From: Spirochaetia bacterium | GTDB lineage: Bacteria > Spirochaetota > Spirochaetia > UBA9216 | Direction of reading: 5' to 3' | Assembly (NCBI GenBank): GCA_965140585.1 | Contig: OZ223268.1 | Location: 133,221-197,220 of the forward strand | Length of the DNA: 64,000 nucleotides | Position numbers and translations under genes: made by a program | Notes under the pieces: generated by a model | Seen by the model: the letters and a program-made list of their open reading frames with translations, nothing else | Told to the model about the DNA's origin: nothing | Database searches by the model: none | In this document: positions 32,214 through 46,772 of the stretch, piece by piece | Numbering within the stretch: position 1 is the stretch's first letter | How the letters are laid out: every line of letters starts with the position of its first letter

Positions 32214-33199
32214 TTATTCTCTTGCTATAATTGTATAGTTTATCAGATTCTCAGTCATCAGAGTTTCTTTAGCTTCTATTGATAATCCACGTGCAATAAA
32301 GCCCTGTGATATTTCTCCTATGTCGACAAATGCAGTTTCAATACCATCATACTGACTTGTTGAAGCTATTACTTTTATAATTCTGTCCCATAGGGAGCTT
32401 CCAGTTCAAAGTTAAAAGGATATGAACCATCCGGTATTTTGTAGATTGTTTCAGAAGATATATAATTATTATCAAAGTACTCATTAGGAAAAATAAGCTG
32501 ATACTGACCTTCCACATCAATATGATATATTTTTACATAGCAGTTTTTATTGGCTATCAAGTTAACAATAAGATTCTCTCCCTCGAAATATACTCCGCCA
32601 TCCCCCCTGCTCGTCCAAACTTTTAAAACCAATTCATCATCATGTTTTAAAATTCCTGATATTTCTTTAATCACATTTTTTGCTTTATTATAGTTATCAG
32701 GATATAAGGCTATTTTACTTGGAATAACACCTTTAGGGATACTGATTTTAACAGTATTTAAAGTAACAGCTGTTCTTATAGAAAGTAAATCCAGATATAA
32801 CTCAATGATTTCATCGAACACATAATACTTCCCTGTTATAAGCGTATCTACGACCTTCAGTTCACCAGTCATAGAGCCAGCTTCATCATCAAACAATCCG
32901 GATAATTCAAGGGTTATCTCATCAATGATCTGATCCATATTATTCCGGTTAACGACACTAACCGCTGATTCTTCAGTTAAAACAAGTTCAATCCGTTCTG
33001 ATACATAGGAACTGAATTCAGATCCTATATTTTTATCAGAAAGCACTATATTCCCAATACCGATTGTTAGATTTTCTTCAACCGGATTGATCAATTTTTT
33101 TAAAGGAGGATACAGGATTGAATCCATAGAATCTGAGAAAACCAGCCCACCAATAAAAATGAGATAAATCACTGTCACTACTTTCTTAGCTGAGCTCAT
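32214..33199 (-). pseudogene. Exported FlgO/CsgG-like plus DUF4384 protein, frameshifted near 32380
   Basis: Signal peptide after ATG 33199; VVNRNNMDQIIDEITLELSGL; YFEGENL...LIFPNEY...IPD...APYGTE; shifted frame continues IKVIASTSQ...YTIIARE to stop at 32214. May be an assembly error. Confidence 0.65.
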
Positions 33200-33357
33200 A
33201 CTTCCTTCCATAACTAATTTTAATTCCTCTAGCTGATTCACTATACCATGACTGACAGGTATATCAAAAGTCTTTCTTGACGGCTCCTCAAAGATCAAAT
33301 ACCATACTAAAAAACAAAAACGGCTTTTTACTCTTCCAAAGAGAAATAGGGACAGTA

Positions 33358-36300
33358 ATGAAAAAACTGATAATAATTCTTGTAATCATAATATCTACAT
33401 ATTGTTGTTCAACACAGAGTAAATATCAAAATATTGAATACAAAACATCAACTTCACAATATTCAGTACTAAACAGACCGCAAAATCCTCCTTCTGATTT
33501 TAATCCTGTGATAGAAATTGATCCCGGCGGACATACCAGTGCTGTAAAAAGTATTTCAGCTTCAAAATCTGGTATGACTATATTTTCCGCAGGGCAGGAT
33601 AGAACTATCAGACTTTTTGACAAAGAAACAGGTAGACAACTTAGAAAATTTATATTTGAACTCGAATCAACTGGAGAGAAAACTTTTTTAAATTCTGTTT
33701 CATTATCACCTGATGAAAATTATATTGCAGTCGGAGGCTCAACACCAGGAATCAGAATTTTTAATGTCAACTCAGGTAAAATGGTAAAGATAATTTACGG
33801 TCCAATGAGCATCATCTATGACTTGAAATACAGTCCGGATGGTAAATATATCGCGGCTGGGTTTACAGATGGTACCGGAGGAGGGATAGCTGTTTTTTCT
33901 GTTTTAGATAATTATCAGAACATTTTTGAAATTAGAACTGATGATAATTACCCTATGGATATTGAGTTTTTTAGCAAGAAGAATGAAGTCTTTTTAACTG
34001 CAGGATATGTAAGAAAAGGAAGAATTGATATCATTTCAGTCACTCAGGAAAAAGTCATAAAAACGGTCACAACAACCTCAGTAGTACGTGATATAGCAGT
34101 AAACGAGAATAACATTGCGGCAGCCTTCCAGGAAAACAACTTAATCATTTTTTATGATTTCAATTTGAATAAAGTACGAGAATTAAGAAGTGAAATCAAA
34201 AATCCATATAAAATACTTTTCACACCTGATAACAGGTATGTAGTAATTGGTGATGGTTCCGGACTACCCTTTAAGTGCATAAGCTATGAATTAAAAACTT
34301 TACAAAAAGTCTCTGAGTTTACTATGCATAAAGGCTCGGTATTATCAATGGCTGCACTCCCGGATAATACAATATTGAGCGGCGGTGTAGAAGGAAAAAT
34401 CTTCAATTGGAATCCTGAAACAGGGACTCTGGTTACGGAATTTGGAAAACATGAAGAACCGATTAGACGAATATGTACTGACGGTCAGAAAATCTTCTTT
34501 GCTTATAACTGGACACAAAACAATTCTGAAATTTCCGAATTTATTTTTTCCGGGTATATAAAACCAGAAAATTTCAGTTTTGAATTTGGAGAATTCAGTA
34601 CACCGAAGGTTTCTTTTTTAAACACGGAAAAGGATGGTCTGAAAATACAAGCAGTAAGTTCTACCGAGATTGAATTAACACTTAATAGCAGAGAAAAGAA
34701 GATCATCTCTCCAGGATACGGCTCCCGGGGCTTGGGTATTACAAAAGACAGGTTGTTTGTGATCGGAAGCTGGGAAGGGACGATATCAATCTTTGATTCT
34801 GAAGGTAATTTCAGAGCAAAACTCACCGGGCATGATGGCGTAGTATCCGGATTTACAGAATATAAAGACTACCTTGTTTCATGTGGTGATGACAGAACTA
34901 TACGATTCTGGGATCTTGGCATAATTGATGATCTCTCAGCGCTCCCTATGAGTTTTATTATAAAAGAAGTTTTTCCCGGAGGCCCGGCAGATAAATCCGG
35001 ACTTGATACAGGGGATATAATAACTGCTGTCAATGGTAGAAAATTCAATGATACTATTTCGTTCGTAGATTATGTACGCAACACCAATCAATGCAGTTTT
35101 GAAATAAGAAGGGAGAATAGGAACATTACAATTGATGCAGCTAAAGAAGAAAATGAAATGTATGCATTCTCACTCGGAACAAATGAATCATCCCTGAAAC
35201 CTTCAATATCCTTTTATATATCACAGAAAGAAGGCCTTGTTGCCTGGACACCGGATGGAGCATTTGAAGGTTCCATGGGAGCCGGCGAAAACATTGGATT
35301 CCACGTCAACCAGGGATTGGCATATGAATCGGATTGGCTTCCCTTAAGGCAGCTGGCTGATATCTATTATAAGCCAGGACTTGTAACAGATTTTTTTAAC
35401 GGTGATCAAATAACCTCACCGCCGCCGATAAAATCACTTAAACTTCCACCTATACTTACTGCTCTGGACATTCAAAAAAAAGATAATCTTGCATGTATCA
35501 AGTTAAGATGTGAAGACCGCGGAGGTGATGCAGTAAATATCAAACTCTATAGAAATAACAGAATCGTTGAGACTTCAATTGAGACCACCTATTCTGAAAA
35601 AATGGTTGAAGAGTTTGAACTGACATCTGAAATGACAGATGGAAAAAATGTATTTCTTATTTCAGCTGAATCAACAGATAAACTGACCTCATTCTCAAAT
35701 AAGATCGAATTTAATAACCCCACAACTAATGAAACTAATCCGGAATTATACATATTATCTTCCGGAGTAAACACTTATTCAGATTTTAATTTGAATACTG
35801 AAAATCGGGGATTAACTATAAATAAAACTGCGTTCAGCCAGGACTCAAACGATAAAAAAGTAACAAACTACAATTATTTTCCAAGTCTGAACTATTCCGT
35901 AAAAGATGCAGAAGATTTTACCGCTGCCTACGTTGCGGGGGCACCGAATTATTTTTCCAGCACTACAGTAATTAAACTCATTGATGATAATGCAACAAAA
36001 GAAAATATAATTATTAATCTCACTGAACTTTCACAAAAAGCGGATTCAAATGACCGTGTAGTAATGTTTTTTGCAGGACATGGTATAACAGTTGAAAAGC
36101 AATATTACTTTGTACCCTATGGAGTAAACACTCTAAAAGAGGTTAAGGAATTCGGAATATCCGCTGCAGAAATAACAAACTGCATTGAAAAAATACAGGC
36201 TGATGAAATCTTTCTTATTCTTGACACGTGTCAAAGCGGTGCAACCAATGATGAACTCTCTAAAAGCATTTTCGGAGCGCTGCTCCTGTTAGGAGAAAAG

Positions 36301-36561
36301 ACCGGGATTTGGGTTATGGCTTCTTCTACGGAATCAGAAGCCAGCCTTGAAAGCAGTCAACTTGAAAATGGTCTATTTACTTACTGCTTAACTGATGTAA
36401 TCAAGTCAGCCAAAGATCTTCCTTATGGAATTAATTTTCAGGAGGCGGCATTAAAAACAGATAAACTTATCAAGGAAAAACTAAAAATTCTCAGTACAAA
36501 TTCTTCGCTTAATCAGACAATCATGTTTACACATGAGATGGATGCAATATTTGCTCAATGA
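33358..36561 (+). CDS. Secreted/lipoprotein WD40-PDZ-caspase-like (peptidase C14) protein
   Basis: MKKLIIILVIIISTYCC signal; GH..V/SAGQDRTIRLFD and GHDG...DDRTIRFWD WD40 repeats; PDZ (PGGPADKSGL.GDIITAVNG); C14 dyad FFAGHG and LDTCQSG. Confidence 0.85.
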   Translation: MKKLIIILVIIISTYCCSTQSKYQNIEYKTSTSQYSVLNRPQNPPSDFNPVIEIDPGGHTSAVKSISASKSGMTIFSAGQDRTIRLFDKETGRQLRKFIFELESTGEKTFLNSVSLSPDENYIAVGGSTPGIRIFNVNSGKMVKIIYGPMSIIYDLKYSPDGKYIAAGFTDGTGGGIAVFSVLDNYQNIFEIRTDDNYPMDIEFFSKKNEVFLTAGYVRKGRIDIISVTQEKVIKTVTTTSVVRDIAVNENNIAAAFQENNLIIFYDFNLNKVRELRSEIKNPYKILFTPDNRYVVIGDGSGLPFKCISYELKTLQKVSEFTMHKGSVLSMAALPDNTILSGGVEGKIFNWNPETGTLVTEFGKHEEPIRRICTDGQKIFFAYNWTQNNSEISEFIFSGYIKPENFSFEFGEFSTPKVSFLNTEKDGLKIQAVSSTEIELTLNSREKKIISPGYGSRGLGITKDRLFVIGSWEGTISIFDSEGNFRAKLTGHDGVVSGFTEYKDYLVSCGDDRTIRFWDLGIIDDLSALPMSFIIKEVFPGGPADKSGLDTGDIITAVNGRKFNDTISFVDYVRNTNQCSFEIRRENRNITIDAAKEENEMYAFSLGTNESSLKPSISFYISQKEGLVAWTPDGAFEGSMGAGENIGFHVNQGLAYESDWLPLRQLADIYYKPGLVTDFFNGDQITSPPPIKSLKLPPILTALDIQKKDNLACIKLRCEDRGGDAVNIKLYRNNRIVETSIETTYSEKMVEEFELTSEMTDGKNVFLISAESTDKLTSFSNKIEFNNPTTNETNPELYILSSGVNTYSDFNLNTENRGLTINKTAFSQDSNDKKVTNYNYFPSLNYSVKDAEDFTAAYVAGAPNYFSSTTVIKLIDDNATKENIIINLTELSQKADSNDRVVMFFAGHGITVEKQYYFVPYGVNTLKEVKEFGISAAEITNCIEKIQADEIFLILDTCQSGATNDELSKSIFGALLLLGEKTGIWVMASSTESEASLESSQLENGLFTYCLTDVIKSAKDLPYGINFQEAALKTDKLIKEKLKILSTNSSLNQTIMFTHEMDAIFAQ

Positions 36562-37593: not shown

Positions 37594-37609
37594 CGGTTAG
37601 TATCCGAAA

Positions 37610-37933
37610 TCAGGATTTTCTGTAAACAAGCAGTGATGCTGTGCCTGTACCCTTTGTGAATACTATTGTGAAACTGTATCCGGGTAATGATTTCTCTGTA
37701 AAATCAAGCTCGTCAATTTCTACAGCCTCGTCATCGGTGGTGACTCTTGCGCTGACGGGAACTGCTTCCTCTGCAGGTTTAATCACCGTTTCAGGAAAAT
37801 TTGCGGCAATTTCAAGAGACATTCCTTCAACTTCAGTTTTGTAAAGATCTCCGGTAATAAGTTTGTCTTCTATAACCGAAACAGCCTCATCATATCCTGT
37901 CAGGACGTATTCGTTTTCGTTTTCTTTTCCCAT
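37610..37933 (-). CDS. Small acidic hypothetical protein
   Basis: 107-aa ORF with protein-like composition, divergent from the ADP-ribosylhydrolase gene. Confidence 0.55.
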   Translation of the reverse strand: MGKENENEYVLTGYDEAVSVIEDKLITGDLYKTEVEGMSLEIAANFPETVIKPAEEAVPVSARVTTDDEAVEIDELDFTEKSLPGYSFTIVFTKGTGTASLLVYRKS

Positions 37934-37974
37934 AAGATTAATTATAATTATTTTTTGGCTGGATTCAAAAAAAC

Positions 37975-38002
37975 TTGATATCTTTCAACTTAGTGTTATA
38001 AT
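37975..38002 (+). promoter_or_regulatory. Sigma-70 promoter with extended -10 for the ADP-ribosylhydrolase fusion
   Basis: TTGATA-16 bp-TATAAT with TGn; supports a start at 38061 rather than 37863. Confidence 0.55.
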
Positions 38003-38060
38003 TACACATATAAATAGTTTTAAGATTACACTATTATTCCGGAAAATAAGGAAACAGCTG

Positions 38061-39989
38061 ATGATTGGAGCAGTAATAGGTTCACCCTATGAGGTTAAAT
38101 CAACCAAAGATAAGAGCTTTCCCCTGATAACTATTTTTTCGAATATTACTGATGATACAGTTATGACCTGTGCGGCTGCCCTGACACTCCTGAACAGGGG
38201 ACATAATGCTGAATCCGATGATTTTGCCGATTCGTTTCGTAAACTCGGAAATAAATATCCCGGGGCCGGATACGGCGGTAATTTCAGGCGATGGCTGAAG
38301 AAACCCGATGCTCCTGCGTATAATTCATGGGGCAACGGTTCCGCTATGAGAGTAAGTCCTGTGGGATGGATTGTGGAGGATGAAAAAACGGTTCTGAAAC
38401 TTGCCGAGGCCTCTGCAGCCTGCACTCATAACCATCCTGACGGAATAAAAGGCGCTCAGGCTTCAGCCCTGGCCGTTTTTATGGCCAGAAAAGGAAAATC
38501 AAAGGAAGAAATCAGGGGTCGTCTCACAGAACTTTTCGGATATGACCTAAATAGAAAAACAGCTGACATAAGACAAAATTATACCTTCCAGGTCAGCTGC
38601 ATGGAATCAGTACCGGAGGCTATCATTGCATTTCTTGATTCAGACAGCTTTGAAGATGCCCTGCGTAACGCTGTTTCGCTTGGAGGCGATTCCGATACCC
38701 AGGCAGCAATATGCTGCTCAATAGCCGAAGCCTTCTACGGGGAAATCCCTCAAAAAATATTAGCAATGGTTCTTCCCCGCATTCCGTATGATCTGCTCTC
38801 TATTGTTCACAGCTTCTCGCAGAGGTATCTTCCTGAATCATCTGTAAAGGCTGTTAGAAATGAAATGAAATTCAGATCAGGAAATAACATGGACGGAATC
38901 TTTGAACAGTCAAGTCGCTACAGCATTCTGCTTTATTCAAAAACGCAGAAAAATCTACAGGACTACATGGATTCATTAAAAGACGGGACAGCAAATCCCG
39001 GAAGATGGCTGCAGCACCAGCTTGATGGTTTTCAGGTCGCAAAAGAAAAATGGGAGTTTATGCTTCAGTGCCTATTAAACAGCAAGCAGCCCCGCATTTA
39101 TGCAGAAAGCGAACTTCGGGGAGACGGCAGCGACTGGAGTAATGAAGAACTTAAAATATTAGGCGGGATTTCAGTTGCCGTTCCGGTTAGTGTATTTGAC
39201 GACGGCAGACACTATGCCCCTGAAATTCATACTGAGCCATTCGATGCATGCCTTATTTATACTCCGGGAATTCTGCTTAGAAACGATACCGGTAATCCCC
39301 CTGTAGACTGGGACATTATTTCTGATGGAAGTATTAATCAGGATTTATTCACCGAACTCTATGAAACAAAGCTGCTTCCGGCCTTTAAGTATGCCAGCGC
39401 AGCTTCCCTTAAAAATAACAAAAAAGCCATTGTAACAGTGCCGGGCATAGGCTGCGGACAGTTTGCCGACCGGTTTAAAAACAATGCCCCCTACTATCTC
39501 AAAACCGCGCTTGAAACCATCCTTGAGAAACACTGTGAAAGCCTAACTGGAATAGCACTGGTATATTATGACCCCTACAGTGAATGCTCTGATGATGAAA
39601 AAGTATTCGGTAGTCTTACAATGAGAACACGCCCGCTAAGAATAACCCCGCGCCCGCTTTCCCAGCTATGCAGACCACAAGCCTACGCCGAGAACGCGGA
39701 TGATTATTCAGCTCATGACCTGTACAGCATAGTAGCCTGGGATCATGTCTCATGGCCGGGAAATGATTTTTATACAGGAAACAGGGCAACCGACGACGGT
39801 GTGAAGGCGGCAGCAACCGATTCAATGTTCAGAATTACCGGGATTCGAGGTTTTTATGATTCTGATACAAACAGATACCTGCCTCCGGAAGGATATAAAA
39901 ACTGGGAAAGTGCCGTACTTAAGAACCGGCTGGAAATTCGAGCCTTGCGAAATGTGATTCTTACCGGAAATGATACTATATGGAAGTAA
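38061..39989 (+). CDS. ADP-ribosylglycohydrolase (ARH/DraG family) fused to a MavL-like macrodomain
   Basis: N-half: TDDT, SWGNGSAMR, THNHPDGIKGA, GGDSDT. C-half: KQPRIYAES..GDGSDW, PGIGCGQFA, AWDHVSWPGNDFYTGNRATDDGVKAAAT. Confidence 0.8.
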   Translation: MIGAVIGSPYEVKSTKDKSFPLITIFSNITDDTVMTCAAALTLLNRGHNAESDDFADSFRKLGNKYPGAGYGGNFRRWLKKPDAPAYNSWGNGSAMRVSPVGWIVEDEKTVLKLAEASAACTHNHPDGIKGAQASALAVFMARKGKSKEEIRGRLTELFGYDLNRKTADIRQNYTFQVSCMESVPEAIIAFLDSDSFEDALRNAVSLGGDSDTQAAICCSIAEAFYGEIPQKILAMVLPRIPYDLLSIVHSFSQRYLPESSVKAVRNEMKFRSGNNMDGIFEQSSRYSILLYSKTQKNLQDYMDSLKDGTANPGRWLQHQLDGFQVAKEKWEFMLQCLLNSKQPRIYAESELRGDGSDWSNEELKILGGISVAVPVSVFDDGRHYAPEIHTEPFDACLIYTPGILLRNDTGNPPVDWDIISDGSINQDLFTELYETKLLPAFKYASAASLKNNKKAIVTVPGIGCGQFADRFKNNAPYYLKTALETILEKHCESLTGIALVYYDPYSECSDDEKVFGSLTMRTRPLRITPRPLSQLCRPQAYAENADDYSAHDLYSIVAWDHVSWPGNDFYTGNRATDDGVKAAATDSMFRITGIRGFYDSDTNRYLPPEGYKNWESAVLKNRLEIRALRNVILTGNDTIWK

Positions 39990-39996
39990 AATTGTG

Positions 39997-40599
39997 ATGA
40001 ATAAGCTTAGGGTAATTGATAATTCAGCTGTCTATTACGGGGAACTTCATGATAACGAAGTCCACAGCCATCATGCAATACAGCTCATCATATCTCCTGA
40101 AGGGGAATCATAACTTCTGATTAACAATCATAGAATAAAATACAAATCAATTATGATAAATCATGATATTCCGCATGCCATTGAGAAGACTTCAAAAAAT
40201 CTTGTTATTATTTTGTTCAAACCCCTGCTGGACAGTTTATTTAAACTTTCCCTGGATACAGATTATGAAATACTCAATCCAAACCTGGCAACAAAAATAC
40301 TGGATGTTATATCGGGTAAAAATGATGAAAATAAACTGGGACTGTCAAAAAGCAGAATCTCTCATCTTTTCACCGAAGAAATCGGCATATCTCTAAAACA
40401 ATATATTTTATGGAAAAAGCTTCTCTTTGCCATAGACTCAATCCGTTCAGTCTCAGATTTAAGCCAAATTGCGATTGACTGCGGATTTTCTGATATGTCT
40501 CATTTAAGCCGTACATTTAAAAAAATGTTCGGCCACACACCCTCGTCAATATTTAAAAACAGCAGTTCCGTTCAAGTCGATTTTTCAGATTCCCTGTAA
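39997..40599 (+). pseudogene. AraC family regulator, interrupted
   Basis: ATG 39997 (HSHHAIQL cupin motif), in-frame TAA at 40111-40113, then same frame to the HTH (SRISHLF, GFSDMSHLSRTFKKMFG); also short in the middle. Confidence 0.75.
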
Positions 40600-40622
40600 T
40601 TTATATTTCATAGGAGAAAATT

Positions 40623-41243
40623 ATGAAAGAATATTTACAGGAAACTGAGTTATTAAATTTTACTAATCCATCAATATCTGAACTTTCAGAAAAGATGGGA
40701 TGGAAAGATATGTCCGAGTCAGAAAAAATAAGAAGTATCTATAATTACGTACGTGATGATAAAAAATTTGGCTATAACATAGATGATAAAATTCCGTGCA
40801 GATTTCACGGCTTTACTATTGATAAAGCGCTGCAGAAAGGAGCTATTACCGGGATATGGTACCAGCTTAGTCCAAGGGCCATTGTTCACAGCTGGGTCGA
40901 AATTTATCACGATGGTGTCTGGTATGATATTGAAGGATTCATTATTGACAGTGATTATTTACGGACAATTCAGATACTGAACCCAGATTCTAAAAATTTC
41001 TGCGGATACGGGATCGCCACAAAAGACCTGATGAATCCTGAGGTTTCATGGGACAGAAACAATACCTACATTCAGAAAGAGGGGATCAATAATGATTTGG
41101 GAATTTACAACGATCCTGATTCATTTTTTGTGGGACACAGCCAGAAACTTGGACACCTGAAGCGAACTGTATACAAATATATCACAAGGCATATAATGAA
41201 CAGAAATGTAAAAAGAATCAGAACTTTTCAAATCAAAGAATAA
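40623..41243 (+). pseudogene. Transglutaminase-like protein lacking the catalytic Cys segment
   Basis: YVRD..FGYN...IP|CRFHGFTIDK...HSWVE..EG; the usual ASEVL..GYGQCNTK...LLR..G block between two IP dipeptides is missing at about 40795. Confidence 0.7.
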
Positions 41244-41321
41244 AGTTTACAAAAAAGGTTCATTAAATTTTTTGTTTTAATTATAGTTAATCCAGTTTCA
41301 ACAAGTTTGAGGAGGTTAAAT

Positions 41322-41810
41322 ATGGAAGCAAAAAAAATCAGTGACAGTGCGCTAACAATGATTCAGCTCATGGAAAGGGCTGATGCGAATCTGGCTGGCA
41401 ACGTTCACGGAGGCGTCATTATGAAACTTGTGGATAATGCCGCCGGCATAGTGTGCGCAAGACACAGCGGACGAAACGCGGTTACCGCCTCAATTGACAG
41501 GCTTGATTTTCATTCCCCGGTTTTTATCGGGAATCTTATAAGAATACATGCAAGTATCAACTACGTTGGAAAGACCTCAATGGAGGTTGGTGTGAGAGTA
41601 GAAGCGGAAGATGTAATAACCAGCGAAGTCAGACACACAGGTTCAGCATACCTGACATATGTATCACTTGATGATAAGCTCAGGCCGGTTGAACTTCCGC
41701 CCCTGATTGTCGAGACTGAGGCGGAAAAACGAAGACACGCCGCAGCCATCGAACGAAAAGCCAGCAGGATGAAAGAAAGAAAAGCGGAGAAAGAATCCGG
41801 AGATATTTAA
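41322..41810 (+). CDS. Acyl-CoA thioesterase (hotdog fold, YciA-like)
   Basis: DANLAGNVHGG..MKLVD, VTASID, GKTSMEVGV; GGAGG SD. Confidence 0.92.
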   Translation: MEAKKISDSALTMIQLMERADANLAGNVHGGVIMKLVDNAAGIVCARHSGRNAVTASIDRLDFHSPVFIGNLIRIHASINYVGKTSMEVGVRVEAEDVITSEVRHTGSAYLTYVSLDDKLRPVELPPLIVETEAEKRRHAAAIERKASRMKERKAEKESGDI

Positions 41811-41814
41811 ATTG

Positions 41815-41851
41815 AAGGGAAGCGATTACAAATAATCAGCTTCCCTTTTTT
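41815..41851 (+). terminator. Intrinsic terminator
   Basis: AAGGGAAGC...GCTTCCCTT stem plus T-run between convergent genes. Confidence 0.75.
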
Positions 41852-42482
41852 ATACATGGCTAAGCAGATCGCTGATTGAGCTTAAAATAAAATCAGCCTT
41901 TCCGTAATTTACGGAATCGCCGATTGAGGCAGATGAAAATCCCCCTGCAATTGCTGCATCAATTCCGGCATAGGCATCCTCAACAACAAGACAGTCAGAG
42001 GGCTGAAGCCCCAGAAACCCAGCCGCTTTAAGAAAAACCTCAGGGTCGGGTTTGCTGTTCGTTATATTGGTTCCATCGGAGATCGCATCAAATAGTCCGG
42101 TTATTCCGGTTTTCTCCAGGATAAGTCTGGCATTACGGCTTGAGCTTCCAATAGCCGTTTTTATTCCCCGGTTTTTGAGTTCATGTAAAGTATCGACGAC
42201 CCCCTTATCGAGGGAGTCGGGAGACATCTCATTCAATGATTCCTTGTATATTTCATTTTTTTCTGTTGTGTATTGGAGCTTTTCATTCTCATCCATACTC
42301 CGGCTGTTATGTTCAAGAATAATCTCAAAGCTCTCCATTCTTGACACACCTCTCAGCCGGTTATTGATCTGTTCATCAAACTCAAATCCCAGGCGGTCTG
42401 CCACAACTTTCCAGGCTTTATAATGGTAGTTATCGGTATGAACAAGAACTCCGTCGAGATCGAATATAATTCCTTTTATCAT
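41850..42482 (-). CDS. pgmB: Beta-phosphoglucomutase
   Basis: FDLDGV..T...HY.AW, LRGVSRMES, SSSRNA, SKPDPEVF, VEDA. Confidence 0.9.
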   Translation of the reverse strand: MIKGIIFDLDGVLVHTDNYHYKAWKVVADRLGFEFDEQINNRLRGVSRMESFEIILEHNSRSMDENEKLQYTTEKNEIYKESLNEMSPDSLDKGVVDTLHELKNRGIKTAIGSSSRNARLILEKTGITGLFDAISDGTNITNSKPDPEVFLKAAGFLGLQPSDCLVVEDAYAGIDAAIAGGFSSASIGDSVNYGKADFILSSISDLLSHV

Positions 42483-42492
42483 CGCATTCTCC

Positions 42493-43983
42493 TTATAATC
42501 TTGTATCCCATTTTCCGCAGAACGGGTCTACAGGACTGATACCTTTAAAAACAGATCTGCCCATAAGCTTATCCATCAGCTTCTTTAGTGTAACATCATT
42601 GGAGCTATAGGTGTTGATATAGGTTTTAACACGGGGAACATCAAGCAGATGATAGGGATTCTCAAGCGATATAAACACTGTTGGTACCGAAGTCAAATAT
42701 ATCGGGACATTGGCCCCCATCGGCATAGCCCACTCAATTCTGACAACTGTCTGATTGCTTTTGGTATCAAGGCTTGCGAGGTAGAGAATTAGATCATAAT
42801 TATCGGTAATCTCTGATGAAGCCTGCATTAGTCCTTCCATACCCTTTGAAGGATCAAATCGGTCAACCTTAAAACCTTCGGCTTCAAGCATTTCAATGAA
42901 TGTCCGGTAGACAGGCTTTTTTTCGCCGTGAAAGAATCCGCCTTCATCCTGAATATCATAGAGAAGAACTCTATTATGCTTTTGGGGAGACAGGGGCAGA
43001 GTATCCTCGAGGTTTTTAACGAGTGTTATAGAATCATCCGCACATTCTTCAGCCCATCGTTGATATTTTTCTGAACCTAATGCCGAAGTTATATTGTCAA
43101 GAACAGGGATATCTTTTCCGCTTAAATGCTTTTTATGAAGTTTTTATGCAGCCTTCAACGCAAGTATTCTGGTCACCGCCTCATCAAGCCGCTCCGCGGT
43201 AATTGTTCCGTCTGCAACACCGGCTTTCATGAATGCGAAATCCTCTTCCATGTTCCTTATAAACAGAAACATATCGCAGCCGGCTGCAATTGCGGCAGGG
43301 ACAGCCTTTGACCTGGGCATAGGAATAGCCATTCAGGCCATTGCGGTAGCATCGGTGATTACAAGCCCGTTAAACCCAAGCTCATTTCGCAGGAGTCCTT
43401 CTATCAGTTCCGGAGACAGAGTTGCAGGGAGGATCTCTTCATCCTTCAGTTCAGGATTGAGTTTCCGGCTCCAGGAAGGAAGCATAATATGGCCGGCCAT
43501 CACCGTCAGCACTCCCGCAACAATACAGTCCCGGAATATCTTTCCGTATGTTTTGTCCCACTCTACACAGCTTAAGTCGTTAACAGTGGAAACCAGATGC
43601 TGATCCCTTTCATCAACTCCGTCGCCGGGAAAGTGTTTGCCGGTAGCAGCGGTCTGCATGGGAGAACCGAGAGATGTTCCTCCGTTTACAAGTCCGTTAC
43701 CGCCCCGCTCCAGGTTTGCTGAAATGAGCATTGGAATATCAGTGTTCTTCTGCAGGGTGCCGATAGTTTTAACAAGCTCCTCAGGGTCCATTGCACGGCA
43801 CATCAATCCACCGGGTTTAATATCCCCGGCCATGTGCATCAGGAATCCTTCATCCGGGGCATAGGCAATAAGGCAGAAAAGCTGTGCAATCTTTTCATCT
43901 TCAGAGAGGGAAGCAAGGACCGAGTTTACCCAATTAATATCATCATCACAAAGGTTGAATGGTTTTGCTTTAAGATCTATCAT
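42493..43983 (-). pseudogene. Glycoside hydrolase family 3, interrupted
   Basis: One frame with in-frame TGA (43333) and TAA (43144); MIDLKAKPF, KHFPGDGVDERDQH, GFNGLVITDAT, GISPVDPFC; internal deletion at AATG|KHFPG. Confidence 0.85.
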
Positions 43984-44005
43984 ATAGAGTTTCTCCTGTT
44001 ATATT

Positions 44006-45970
44006 CTATTTTCCGGCAAAGGCTGTATTCATAATTTCAACAACCTTATCTGCATCCGGCATCATCTGCAGGGCACTTCGCAGCGTCACAAGCTTTTTGG
44101 TAAAAATAACCGCCTTAAGAAATCCCGGCGCGTCTAGTTCATCAAGAGTTTTCATGAGGATTCCGAATGCCCGGGGATCTGCATGAATTTCACCGTTGAT
44201 ATCGTCGACAGTATATGGTCCCCTTAAATCAGGATATGTATAATTACAGTCCCAGGACCAGAAACCTGAGCCGGTGTTTCTCGGCGCCTGTGTTCCGGGA
44301 AGTATTATTTCTGCCGTGCAGTTTACAGGAATTTCAGCATCAAGATAAAACTTCCCGCCTTCTATCTTCCATGAAACGTTTATCTTTCCATAAGGGCAGA
44401 TGTGAGTTGCACTGCAATGCTCTATTCCGCCGCCCGGTCTGGGGGCTATACTAATAAGACTGTAGCCGGGTTCTGCGGATTAAATTCCGCCTATAGTCCG
44501 GTGCAGCCAGTCGCCGAACTGGAAGCCTCTGTTCCATAGAAAGTTATCGCCTGCCGAATCTGAAATAAAATCAACCCAGGCCTTCATGCTTTCATACTGG
44601 ACTGCCGGAATTCCGCTGTCACCAAAGCGATTGTATAAGACCCAGGGCACTACAGTGGCTGCATCTCCCCATGCGGCAGCACCGAAGGCTTCTCCAAAAG
44701 CATTGGGAATAACAGGAGGAACAGCACCCCCTATTTTTGTCTGCTCAAAAGAAAGGTCTCGAAGCCATGACTGAAGAAATGAAGTGACATCATAAAGGTA
44801 GGATGCTGTCGGTGAAAAAACCTGCAGATCTCCTGTCCACCCGAGCCGCTCATCACGCTGCGGACAGTCGGTCGGAATGGAAAGAAAGTTGCCCTTTAGC
44901 CCCCAGCGGATATTTTCATGCAGGCGGTTTAGAAGTTCATCCGAGGTTTCAAACCAGCCGGGCCTTTCCAAATCGGAATGTATTACCCTTGCCTCAAAAA
45001 ACTCAGGCTTAAGCTCGCCCGTCCATCCCGAGACTTCGGCATATCTGAAACCATGAAAGGTGAAGGCAGGTTCAAAAACTTCCTCAACTTTGCCTTTTAA
45101 AATATAGCGGTCTGTAGCTTCAGCCATCCTGAGCGGCCGGACTCCAAGCTCTCCGTTTTCAAGAACTTCAGCATGACGGATAACAAGCTCCTGCCCCGCT
45201 TTGCCGGAACCCCTTATACGAAGGCTTCCCACAAGGTTCTGGCCGAAGTCAAGAATTGTTTTCCCGAAGGACTGGTTATAACTTCTTTTACTTTAAGCGT
45301 TTCAATTTCCCTGACCGGCGGACTCAGCATCGGCATAAGAATGGATACCGGCGTATCAAGGAGCCCGACATTCCGCCATATGCTGTCATCAAAGCCGGGG
45401 CTGGTCCATCCTGCAGTTTCCTGCCGGCCGTCCGCATAGCTGAGCTCAAGCTGAGAAATAAAACCTAACCTGTTTCCCCAGATATCACGTTTACCGCCTT
45501 CAAAGCCTATACGCCCCTTGTACCAGCCTTCGGCAAGAACTGCACTTATCGCGTTTTTACCCTCTTTAATAAGAGATGTAACATCATAGGTCTGGTAATT
45601 GAGGACGCTGTCATAGGAGGTCCATCCGGGTGTAAAAAGCTGATCACCGGCCTTCACACCATTGATACAGCACTCATAGAGTCCAAGCGCACTTGAATAC
45701 AGACGGGCCTTTACCAGACCGGGGCCAGCTGTAAATTCTTTTCGAAGACAGGGTGACGGTGCTGTGATGCCCTCAGCTTCTTCCCGGCATGGACTGATGA
45801 AGATAGCACTCCAATCCGATTCATCCAGCAGTCCCGCCTCAATATGCAGAGGCTCACTCCACGGGGAGGCATCATCCGAACTGCTGCCCCAGACTCTTAC
45901 GCTCACGGTTAAAGCCTGCCTCGAAATTAACGGCGGAGACGGCCACCCTGCGTAGATTGATTCATTGCTT
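44006..45970 (-). pseudogene. Alpha-L-rhamnosidase (GH78), fragmented
   Basis: ARLYSSALGLYE, PGWTSY, EPAFTFHGFRY, PTDCPQRDERLGWTGD, AAWGDA, FQFGDWL across frameshifted pieces; N-terminus and much of the catalytic barrel missing. Confidence 0.85.
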
Positions 45971-46606
45971 TCATCCGCGAAGACCCTTAAGAAATAATTC
46001 TGCAATCTGGATGAAGATGTCACGGCTGGGAATGCTGAACTCCTCATCAAGCTTAGGTCCCAGTTCACCTATCCTGTTCATCAATCCCGAGTTCAGATTA
46101 AAAATTGAGGCTATAATCATATCAATGCTGATATCAGCCCTGATACTTCCGTCAGCCTGACCGGATTGGACAGCCTTTCTTAGATTAAGGTCCCCTTCAC
46201 CCAGAGCTCCTCGGATTATTTCCAGAGCCTGCTCACCGGTCCAGTGCTTTGCGTAAAGATAGTTGAACTCTGCAATAAAGGAGGCTTCCCTGATATTGTC
46301 AAACATTCTATCTATATGTTTCATTATGAATTTCTCAACAGTTGCATATCCGGAGTCCCTGCAGCTCCATACTTTTACCCTGTCATCCTCTGCCCATCCG
46401 GATGTTACCGTCTTGAATATTTCAATAGCCATATCTTCCTTACATGAGAAATATTTATACAGAGTAGGCCTGGTAATGTTTGAAGTCTGTGCAATATCAA
46501 TTATAGTCACCGCCTCAATGCCGTTTTTTATAAAAAGATCTTCAGCTGTATTTAATAACTGCTCACGCTGATTTTCCCTATGCCTTGTATACTGACCTTT
46601 TTCCAC
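45971..46606 (-). CDS. TetR family regulator
   Basis: N-terminal HTH TIIDIAQTSNITRPTLYKYF. Confidence 0.88.
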   Translation of the reverse strand: MEKGQYTRHRENQREQLLNTAEDLFIKNGIEAVTIIDIAQTSNITRPTLYKYFSCKEDMAIEIFKTVTSGWAEDDRVKVWSCRDSGYATVEKFIMKHIDRMFDNIREASFIAEFNYLYAKHWTGEQALEIIRGALGEGDLNLRKAVQSGQADGSIRADISIDMIIASIFNLNSGLMNRIGELGPKLDEEFSIPSRDIFIQIAELFLKGLRG

Positions 46607-46772
46607 AATGCTCTCCGTATATTTTATTTTTTCATATATTTACAGTATGTTTAAATTTTTACATATTGTTAATTTTATAATAAAATATATCTTTTCCTAT
46701 GTCAAATTAAGAATTGATTAAATACGCTCAGGTGTCTGGATCAAATCTTCACGTATATATTACTATCTGCGG

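Follow-up and report, generated by a model that had tools for sequence, protein, structure and literature searches.

One gene of a Spirochaetia bacterium of the UBA9216 lineage joins an ADP-ribosylhydrolase (ARH) domain to a macrodomain of the type of Legionella pneumophila MavL. It lies on the plus strand at 38061–39989 of the window, by which we mean the whole 64,000-nucleotide stretch of contig OZ223268.1 (assembly GCA_965140585.1) that was analysed and to which all coordinates refer. The ARH–MavL fusion is an inherited architecture of a small spirochaete-like group and a new combination of known parts. Its product is, with fair probability, a cytoplasmic two-module ADP-ribosyl hydrolase kept by selection, in which the MavL half acts on arginine-linked ADP-ribose and the ARH half has been weakened in this genus. 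The fusion proteins already carry the database label ‘ADP-ribosylglycohydrolase family protein’. A printed description of the fusion did not turn up in the searched literature on MavL macrodomains and ARH (supplements not included); the word ‘fusion’ is absent from the text of PMC10951314, and ‘fused’, ‘fusion’ and ‘spirochaet’ are absent from that of PMC11668277.

The gene is a single ATG-started frame of 642 codons plus a stop. The position of the start codon is fixed by 29 homologues, which open with M-[IL]-G-A at the same point. An earlier interpretation of this DNA made from the letters alone, called the sequence-only reading below, had described one frame joining an ARH domain to a domain of about 360 residues. 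This description holds, and every motif quoted in it is present: TDDT, GGDSDT, YAES, PGIGCGQFA (residues 461–469) and WDHVSWPGNDFYTGNRATDDGV. Only its interval for the catalytic loop, 39735–39822, was a few codons too wide, as WDHVSWPGNDFYTGNRATDDGV occupies residues 560–581 (nucleotides 39738–39803). The features of the gene are as follows.

38061..39989, plus strand: whole coding sequence of the ARH–MavL fusion (from the listing of open reading frames (ORFs), the Pfam domains and a same-length orthologue in G001, a genome of the same genus)
38048..38054, plus strand: AAGGAAA, a putative ribosome-binding-site-like stretch 6 nucleotides before the ATG, read from the sequence
38061..38846, plus strand: ARH domain, residues 1–262, all-helical (PF03747, E 1.7e-36; ARH3 structures, E 2e-14; Foldseek, E 1.5e-10; helices of the model)
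38061..38093, plus strand: N-terminus MIGAVIGSPYE, with four residues gone, including the Asp of ‘GD’; E11, the counterpart of ARH3 E41, is kept (alignments, G001)
38148..38159, plus strand: TDDT, residues 30–33, first ARH metal-ligand motif; T30, D31 and D32 are invariant in 31 fusions and align with TDDT of ARH3
38682..38699, plus strand: GGDSDT, residues 208–213, second ARH metal-ligand motif, aligned with GGDTDT of ARH3
38835..38918, plus strand: helical linker, residues 259–286, which contains Met-277 (ATG at 38889) (alignment, model)
38919..39896, plus strand: MavL-type macrodomain, residues 287–612 (PF24754, E 1.1e-118; MavL chains, E 1e-72; template-modelling (TM) score 0.87–0.89 to 8dmp/8ipw)
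39099..39110, plus strand: YAES, residues 347–350, counterpart of MavL F105-A-E107-S in the substrate-side loop (alignment with the MavL chain)
39438..39464, plus strand: VPGIGCGQF, residues 460–468, diphosphate-binding loop, in which F468 is the counterpart of MavL F227 (motif of PMC10951314, alignment)
39738..39797, plus strand: WDHVSWPGNDFYTGNRATDD, residues 560–579, catalytic loop (alignment with MavL, motif of PMC10951314)

An AlphaFold model, for which 31 fused homologues were used, had a mean predicted local distance difference test score (pLDDT) of 89.1 and a predicted TM score (pTM) of 0.87. As the latter is high for a two-domain protein, the model suggests a fixed mutual arrangement of the ARH and MavL modules. 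Loop 348–353, in the YAES region, was predicted at a pLDDT below 50. The internal ATG at 38889 had been proposed to mark the fusion point; it is codon 277, lies in the linker and encodes a Met that is not conserved outside the genus, and nothing supports it as a mark of the junction. It has no support as an internal start either: an AGGAA stands upstream, but the Met is not conserved and stand-alone MavL proteins start about eight residues later.

The C-terminal half is clearly of the MavL type. It matches Pfam family PF24754 (‘Macrodomain effector MavL’) with 396.4 bits against a cut-off of 27, over the complete profile (1–325 of 325) and residues 287–612. PF24754 is the only macrodomain family matched, and PF16062 is not among the Pfam matches of the protein at E values up to 1. 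In comparison with solved structures, this half found six distinct MavL sequences with E values of 1e-70 to 1e-73. Foldseek placed the model on MavL with E 2e-28, a target TM score of 0.87–0.89 and a root-mean-square deviation of 2.4 Å over about 360 columns, and the structural alignment has 36% identity. To our knowledge, no macrodomains outside the MavL class are known to reverse the ADP-ribosylation of arginine, and work on the class has been confined to Legionella effectors and two fly proteins.

The class bears two signatures, [V/I/L]xGxGxGx[F/W/Y] and WDxx[S/A]xPGN[D/E][F/Y][F/W/Y] (PMC10951314, used here and below in excerpt), and both are present in the window protein, as VPGIGCGQF (460–468) and WDHVSWPGNDFY (560–571). 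In MavL, activity is lost in the mutants D315A, D323A, D333A and F227A, while N322A and T331A have weaker effects; H142 and Y265 stack the adenine, and F105 and E107 matter in the substrate-side loop (PMC10951314). Residues were mapped by alignment to chain 8xep_A, whose numbering is that of native MavL. All eleven mapped ADP-ribose-binding or catalytic residues have a counterpart in the window protein: H142 in H384, Y265 in Y506, F227 in F468, D315 in D561, N322 in N568, D323 in D569, T331 in T577, D332 in D578, D333 in D579, F105 in Y347 and E107 in E349. D561, D569, D579, F468, H384 and Y506 are invariant or nearly so across the 31 fusions. The spacing D-x6-ND-x7-T-x-D, which the sequence-only reading had given for the catalytic loop of MavL, was verified against PMC10951314 and by our alignment.

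With its active site complete, the MavL half most likely hydrolyses arginine-linked mono-ADP-ribose, because the only activity demonstrated for the class, according to the excerpted text of PMC10951314, is the removal of mono-ADP-ribose from arginine, on proteins or peptides and not on metabolites. The full-length domain match, both signatures and the eleven residues are common to MavL (Lpg2526) and the window protein. The latter differs in that its macrodomain sits behind an ARH domain, lacks effector modules and has Gln in place of C226 and Cys in place of T224. The DUF4804 (PF16062) enzymes CG2909 and CG3568 of Drosophila and Larg1 belong to the same arginine-specific macrodomain class and share the logic of the catalytic loop (PMC10951314), but those are eukaryotic or effector proteins and have no ARH fusion.

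The N-terminal half belongs to PF03747 (ADP_ribosyl_GH), matched over residues 29–228 with 126.9 bits against a cut-off of 26.2. Its nearest solved relative is ARH3 (E 2e-14), followed by DraG (E 5e-6) and a Tri1-type chain (E 0.04); the Foldseek superposition on ARH3 has a target TM score of about 0.6. The ligands of the binuclear metal site and the catalytic Glu are kept (T30, D31, D32; D210, D212, T213; E11). In common with ARH3 (ADPRHL2/ADPRS), a hydrolase of serine-ADP-ribose, poly(ADP-ribose) and O-acetyl-ADP-ribose, the domain has TDD, GGDxDT, the counterpart of Glu-41 and a GNGxAMR segment. However, it is only about 24% identical to ARH3, is shorter (about 260 versus about 350 residues) and lacks the Asp that we equate with D34.

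The sequence-only reading had placed this half with DraG and Tri1, arginine-specific ARH enzymes which are paired with DraT or Tre1. The ARH fold and the metal site are indeed shared, but the NCBIfam scores are far under the equivalog cut-offs (DraG TIGR02662, 52 bits versus 337; Tri1 NF041672, 29.3 bits versus 490), and we rejected a DraG or Tri1 identity. The window gene also differs from these in having no ADP-ribosyltransferase (ART) as a neighbour; DraT (PF07357) has no match in the genome, the control genomes being silent too. The further idea that two folds serve a similar reaction on arginine becomes only an assumption, because the ARH half is not of the DraG/Tri1 type and is closest to ARH3. 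Complementary linkage specificities of the two halves are at least as likely as a shared reaction. The ARH, as a compact binuclear-metal enzyme, would probably handle a different ADP-ribose conjugate or derivative from that handled by the MavL half.

The same ARH, at 50–58% identity, also occurs alone as a protein of about 255–265 residues. Its carriers are genomes and metagenome-assembled genomes (MAGs) named Chloroflexi, Bacteroidetes, Clostridia, Desulfobacterota, cyanobacteria and others. Elsewhere it is fused to DUF1810, OGFr_N, DUF3293, DUF6508, Macro, CutC, vWA, STAS or a second ARH.

One feature sets the ARH of this genus apart. Intact homologues open with MIGAIxGDvlGSxYE (M-[IL]-G-A-I-x-G-D-v-l-G-S-x-Y-E), while MIGAVIGSPYE of the window protein has four residues fewer, among them the Asp. 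Because these four residues are gone, the PF03747 match begins only at profile position 48, compared with position 3 in intact homologues. The GD pair is found in 29 of the 30 other fused proteins, the remaining one being cut at the N-terminus. Among the best 120 matches, 109 of the 110 ARH domains with an N-terminus have it, and the window protein is the sole exception. The identical short N-terminus in the congeneric G001 indicates that the loss was inherited and is not an assembly slip. That a short deletion had removed the usual GD was already suspected from the letters, and the comparison with G001 and the 29 complete fused homologues upholds it.

We take the lost Asp to be the equivalent of ARH3 D34, on the basis of the ARH3 sequence and of the spacing (D34 lies seven residues before E41, as GD...E does here). 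Activity is severely reduced in the ARH3 variant D34G, which is listed with mutations ‘within the active site’ (PMC8319183, in excerpt). The ARH of this genus is probably weakened or altered, with the MavL half doing the main work. The label ‘double eraser’ may overstate the function in this genus, since its ARH lacks the Asp equated with this active-site residue. Restricted to one genus and found under continued purifying selection, the loss represents a natural experiment on the role of both the residue and the domain.

The fusion itself recurs in other genomes. Among the best 120 matches listed from a search of 5.8 billion proteins, at least 37 protein clusters, the window’s own included, carry both families over the full length at 44–53% identity. 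The four of them that are named with an organism come from Spirochaetaceae, Spirochaetia or Spirochaetales MAGs. Of the 79 loci kept from species-representative genomes, only that of a Spirochaetaceae MAG (L002) is fused, and three metagenome contigs (L088, L089 and L090) carry the fusion over its full length. The MavL family is present in three of 61 related genomes: the window’s own, G001 (same genus, fused) and G015 (another family, stand-alone). Neither of the two refuting outcomes named along with the sequence-only reading has come true: the C-terminal half has a strong match to MavL, and the fusion is not unique but recurs in these clusters and in a congener.

FastTree trees were computed from 114 MavL rows and 109 ARH rows, with rows of fewer than 250 or 200 aligned residues dropped. 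In the MavL tree, all 31 fused rows fall within a clade of 33. In the ARH tree they fall within a clade of 35, and two of its four intruders are themselves truncated fusions. As the fused proteins group essentially into one clade for either half, the trees are consistent with a single fusion event.

The scan with the MavL half alone bears on the question of whether the protein is a secreted effector which, like that of Legionella, acts on host ubiquitin or other host proteins. The scan of 1.84 billion representatives gave 527 matches at E values up to 0.001, and among the 150 listed only one (P0028) is fused to an ARH. Long representatives (63 of 97 scanned) do carry effector-type modules, namely ankyrin repeats in five and SidC_N, LepB_N and lpg1496_N in one each. 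A helicase, a cNMP-binding domain and a ricin-type lectin domain were also found once each, and the rest show the MavL domain alone. The fused clade, however, has none of these effector modules. Its N-terminus lies inside the ARH fold, which leaves no room for a signal, and its named carriers are environmental spirochaete MAGs. We consider a secreted effector very improbable. Bacteria have no ubiquitin system, so that the substrate of the spirochaete fusion must differ from that of MavL. The class as a whole was found in environmental genomes and MAGs named spirochaete, methanotroph, cyanobacterial and Chloroflexi. The non-effector role which the sequence-only reading had proposed for MavL-like domains gains support from these environmental spirochaetes and the lack of effector modules, and MavL-type enzymes are thereby placed in free-living bacteria without effector trappings.

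The best match to the MavL half outside the fusions is P0121 (1078 residues). It has two PF24754 stretches (570 bits) and would represent a tandem MavL architecture.

Selection on the fusion gene was analysed by comparison with G001. Both genes have the same length, 588 of 643 aligned positions are identical (stop counted), and there is no indel. The ratio of non-synonymous to synonymous substitution rates (dN/dS) is 0.12 for the whole gene. It is 0.10 in the MavL half and 0.15 in the ARH half, where 14.5 differences are non-synonymous and 26.5 synonymous. The surroundings are in a different state: in the region 37605–46680, compared with locus L083 of G001, eight stretches of 76–785 bp that are present in G001 are absent from the window.

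137 bp: an intergenic stretch
785 bp: removes the gene for a DSP-fold phosphatase
113 bp: inside the gene for an AraC-type regulator
81 bp, in-frame: in a transglutaminase-like gene, which loses its ...GYGQCNT... segment
201 bp: in a GH3 gene
558, 76 and 201 bp: in a rhamnosidase gene

The sequence-only reading had spoken of a decaying region. This is correct for the neighbours, which are broken in comparison with G001, but not for the fusion gene, which was spared and is kept intact by selection amid decaying neighbours. The broken neighbours could raise the suspicion that the gene is itself an accident of decay, either a pseudogene or a chimera left when a deletion brought two separate genes together. 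Against this, the same architecture and length recur in at least 37 clusters, the linker and the domain order are conserved, and the frame is intact in two species with a dN/dS of 0.12. A decay-made chimera was rejected on the recurrence of the fusion, the conserved linker, the G001 orthologue and the dN/dS value, and is hardly credible.

Two side observations concern the same comparison. At six of the deletion junctions the flanking BLAST segments overlap by 6–17 bases in the window, which hints at deletions between short direct repeats. Within the fusion gene, the synonymous divergence from G001 is 0.16 for the ARH part and three times as high, 0.50, for the MavL part, and the DNA identity to G001 is about 93.6% upstream and about 81–93% downstream; a recombination boundary inside the gene is possible.

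The genes next to the fusion gene are the following.

39997..40599, plus strand: remnant of an AraC-family regulator gene, whole (240 residues) in G001, 8 bp past the fusion stop; here it has the 113-bp deletion
37610..37933, minus strand: acidic divergent ORF of 107 residues and no known family, conserved in G001, where the gene for a DSP-type phosphatase comes next

The G001 phosphatase has the DSP fold with an HCxxGxxR loop and is encoded two genes from the fusion, in the stretch that the window has lost through the 785-bp deletion. It resembles the phosphatases adjacent to MavL genes elsewhere only around this loop.

No cognate transferase had been noticed nearby, and this was confirmed for the neighbours scanned. 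We found no ART among the 17 neighbouring ORFs of the window, among 26 neighbours of eight loci, or among 61 of the 123 ORFs around 24 loci (those left out being mostly shorter than about 100 residues, antisense-overlapping or distant). Around 27 loci with a stand-alone or otherwise fused ARH, 100 of the 135 ORFs were scanned (ARH genes and some very long or short ORFs left out), and there was no ART among these either. In the 98.5%-complete genome, PF01129, PF03496, PF07357, PF01375 and PF00644 had no match, but 14 control genomes were silent too, and DarT, RES, KptA and polymorphic-toxin ARTs were not searched. Elsewhere the genome has two canonical ARH genes, one Macro gene and, on another contig, one SIR2 gene. 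As there is no transferase beside the gene and five ART families are unmatched in the genome, the substrates would come from foreign enzymes (phage or competitor ARTs), or from an unrecognized or non-enzymatic source tied to the turnover of NAD and ADP-ribose.

A published precedent exists for the first of these sources. Transferase-less, ARG-centred systems have been predicted to counter viral ADP-ribosylation (Iyer, Burroughs, Anantharaman and Aravind, 2022; PMC9503650, section 3.8). Their predicted parts are Nudix-HTH or WYL regulators, coupled phosphatases (rhodanese-phosphatase, calcineurin-like, HD or HAD), peptide-binding chaperones (vWA, SseB, TY-Chap) or nuclease effectors, and additional Macro domains. 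Macro and NADAR are named as accessory genes, and the lineages given do not include spirochaetes (PMC9503650). ‘DUF4804’ has 0 occurrences in PMC9503650, and ‘MavL’ was not found in its text. The window locus is like these systems in having an ARH without a coupled ART or sirtuin together with a second ADP-ribose-processing domain. It differs from them in lacking the core accessory genes. A Nudix-HTH/WYL regulator is found neither in the window nor in G001, where the regulator is of the AraC type instead, but it is present at the fused locus L089. A coupled phosphatase is absent from the window; G001 has the DSP-fold enzyme, and L088 has a Metallophos gene about 2.2 kb upstream. No chaperone (vWA, SseB, TY-Chap) or nuclease is encoded among the window’s neighbours; ARH–vWA fusions occur elsewhere in the ARH clade. 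The loci of relatives thus carry Nudix-HTH regulators, phosphatases, vWA and Macro, as do the ARG-centred systems.

The fusion might accordingly act in immunity by stripping off ADP-ribose that was added to host proteins by phage ARTs of the Alt/Mod type or by ART toxins of competitors, with two modules for several linkages. The absence of an ART or sirtuin beside the gene, the five unmatched ART families and the predictions of PMC9503650 (section 3.8) favour this role. So do the pieces of the pattern that are scattered among relatives: NrtR (L089), Metallophos (L088, L046, L051), Macro (L046, L069), ARH–vWA and ARH–Macro. Phages carry a related ARH as well, since the ARH half alone has a phage family in PHROGs (phrog_6572, E 9e-43). 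On the other hand, no PADLOC model matches the fusion protein or those ORFs among its neighbours that belong to no known family. The window has no Nudix/WYL regulator, phosphatase, chaperone or nuclease, and its adjoining AraC-type regulator is broken. The published systems are predictions only, in other phyla (PMC9503650). Rapid evolution is named as a hallmark, but a dN/dS of 0.12 gives no hint of it. For the NrtR and NadR-like neighbours, NAD salvage is an equally good explanation. The sequence-only reading had proposed an orphan immunity against ART toxins or ARTs of phages; no defence marker, toxin system or PADLOC match supports it, and we regard it as possible but doubtful.

The same neighbours can be read as signs of housekeeping. 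The enzyme would then reverse endogenous (unrecognized) or non-enzymatic ADP-ribosylation, or clear small ADP-ribose conjugates for a salvage pathway controlled by Nudix/NrtR. At the fused locus L089, the gene for an NrtR-like, ADP-ribose-responsive repressor lies 21 bp upstream (E 1e-50), and a homologue of NadR-like nicotinamide mononucleotide adenylyltransferase/kinase is encoded upstream of the fusion in L002 (E 9e-35). In L088, an HDAC-type gene is directly upstream, followed at the distance given above by the calcineurin-like phosphoesterase. Six of the 27 loci with stand-alone or otherwise fused members of the ARH clade have NAD or ADP-ribose genes.

L005: NadM-Nudix-like and NAMPT-type
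L032 and L039: Nudix
L080: NrtR and PP2C
L021: SIR2
L046: Macro and Metallophos

The SIR2, Macro and two canonical ARH genes kept by the genome agree with such a role. It is opposed by the finding that these associations are minority ones in distant relatives, with none in the window, and by the action of MavL-class enzymes on protein or peptide arginine-ADP-ribose and not on metabolites (PMC10951314, in excerpt). Nor was an endogenous arginine-specific ART found in the families searched. We hold this housekeeping role only tentatively. The neighbour pattern fits an ARG-type antiviral system and NAD-salvage housekeeping alike.

We therefore do not tie the preferred account, that of a cytoplasmic hydrolase with an arginine-acting MavL module and an ARH module weakened in this genus, to either role. 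In this account the domain identities, the conserved residues, the recurrence and the purifying selection are shown, while the substrate, the place in the cytoplasm, the consequence of the deletion and the biological role are inferred. Several points weigh against it. The arginine specificity is carried over from enzymes that are about 36–45% identical. The equivalence of the lost Asp to D34 depends on the spacing in the ARH3 sequence and not on an alignment, as the phmmer alignments start only at residue 29. Purifying selection on the ARH half (dN/dS 0.15) argues that this domain still functions. For the single origin, the FastTree trees have local support values only, and the fused label requires three changes per tree. 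The blanks for ART families are weak, because the controls were silent for all five families and many others were unsearched. Finally, no NAD, Nudix or phosphatase gene stands near the fusion in the window itself, and the argument from context draws on distant relatives and on a minority of their loci (five of 27; two of the six fused loci with flanking sequence).

A wider scenario may be sketched, although we think it rather unlikely as a whole. MavL-type macrodomains would at root be cytoplasmic enzymes of free-living bacteria, later borrowed as effectors by Legionella-like symbionts. The fusion would be a writer-less module against ADP-ribosylation, with two folds that cover different linkages, induced in some carriers by ADP-ribose sensing through NrtR, accompanied by a cysteine phosphatase and directed against phage or competitor ARTs. 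If true, eraser-only immunity by means of the MavL macrodomain class would have its first concrete candidate. Apart from this scenario, the fusion adds a concrete two-fold ‘eraser’ to the published prediction of transferase-less bacterial hydrolases that counter foreign ADP-ribosylation (PMC9503650). The proteins described here provide testable non-effector members of the MavL class, either ARH-fused or stand-alone, the latter often beside DSP-type phosphatases.

Stand-alone MavL genes adjoin DSP-PTPases of the PTP-SAK / Tc-R-P / PTP-NADK kind in five of 27 loci (L069, L099, L105, L114 and L153). L099 and L114 carry ankyrin repeats, L069 has a Macro gene downstream, and L166 has OGFr_N. The pair of stand-alone MavL and DSP-PTPase is thus recurrent, and no description of it was found in the literature covered. 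In G015, which belongs to the same class as the window’s genome (L084, 9619–11633), an inosine-uridine nucleoside hydrolase, another ribosyl N-glycosidase, is encoded after the stand-alone MavL gene and on the same strand.

Upstream of the fusion gene, at 32375–36561 of the window, a protein of 1094 residues is encoded which has WD40 propellers, a PDZ domain and a C-terminal caspase (Peptidase_C14). It adjoins a divergent gene for a DUF4384 protein, and both are conserved in G001. The PADLOC matches obtained among the neighbours scanned were weak. The WD40-caspase protein matched a caspase model (E 1e-12) and a HEAT-ARM model, and the NadR-like protein matched three models at about 1e-4.

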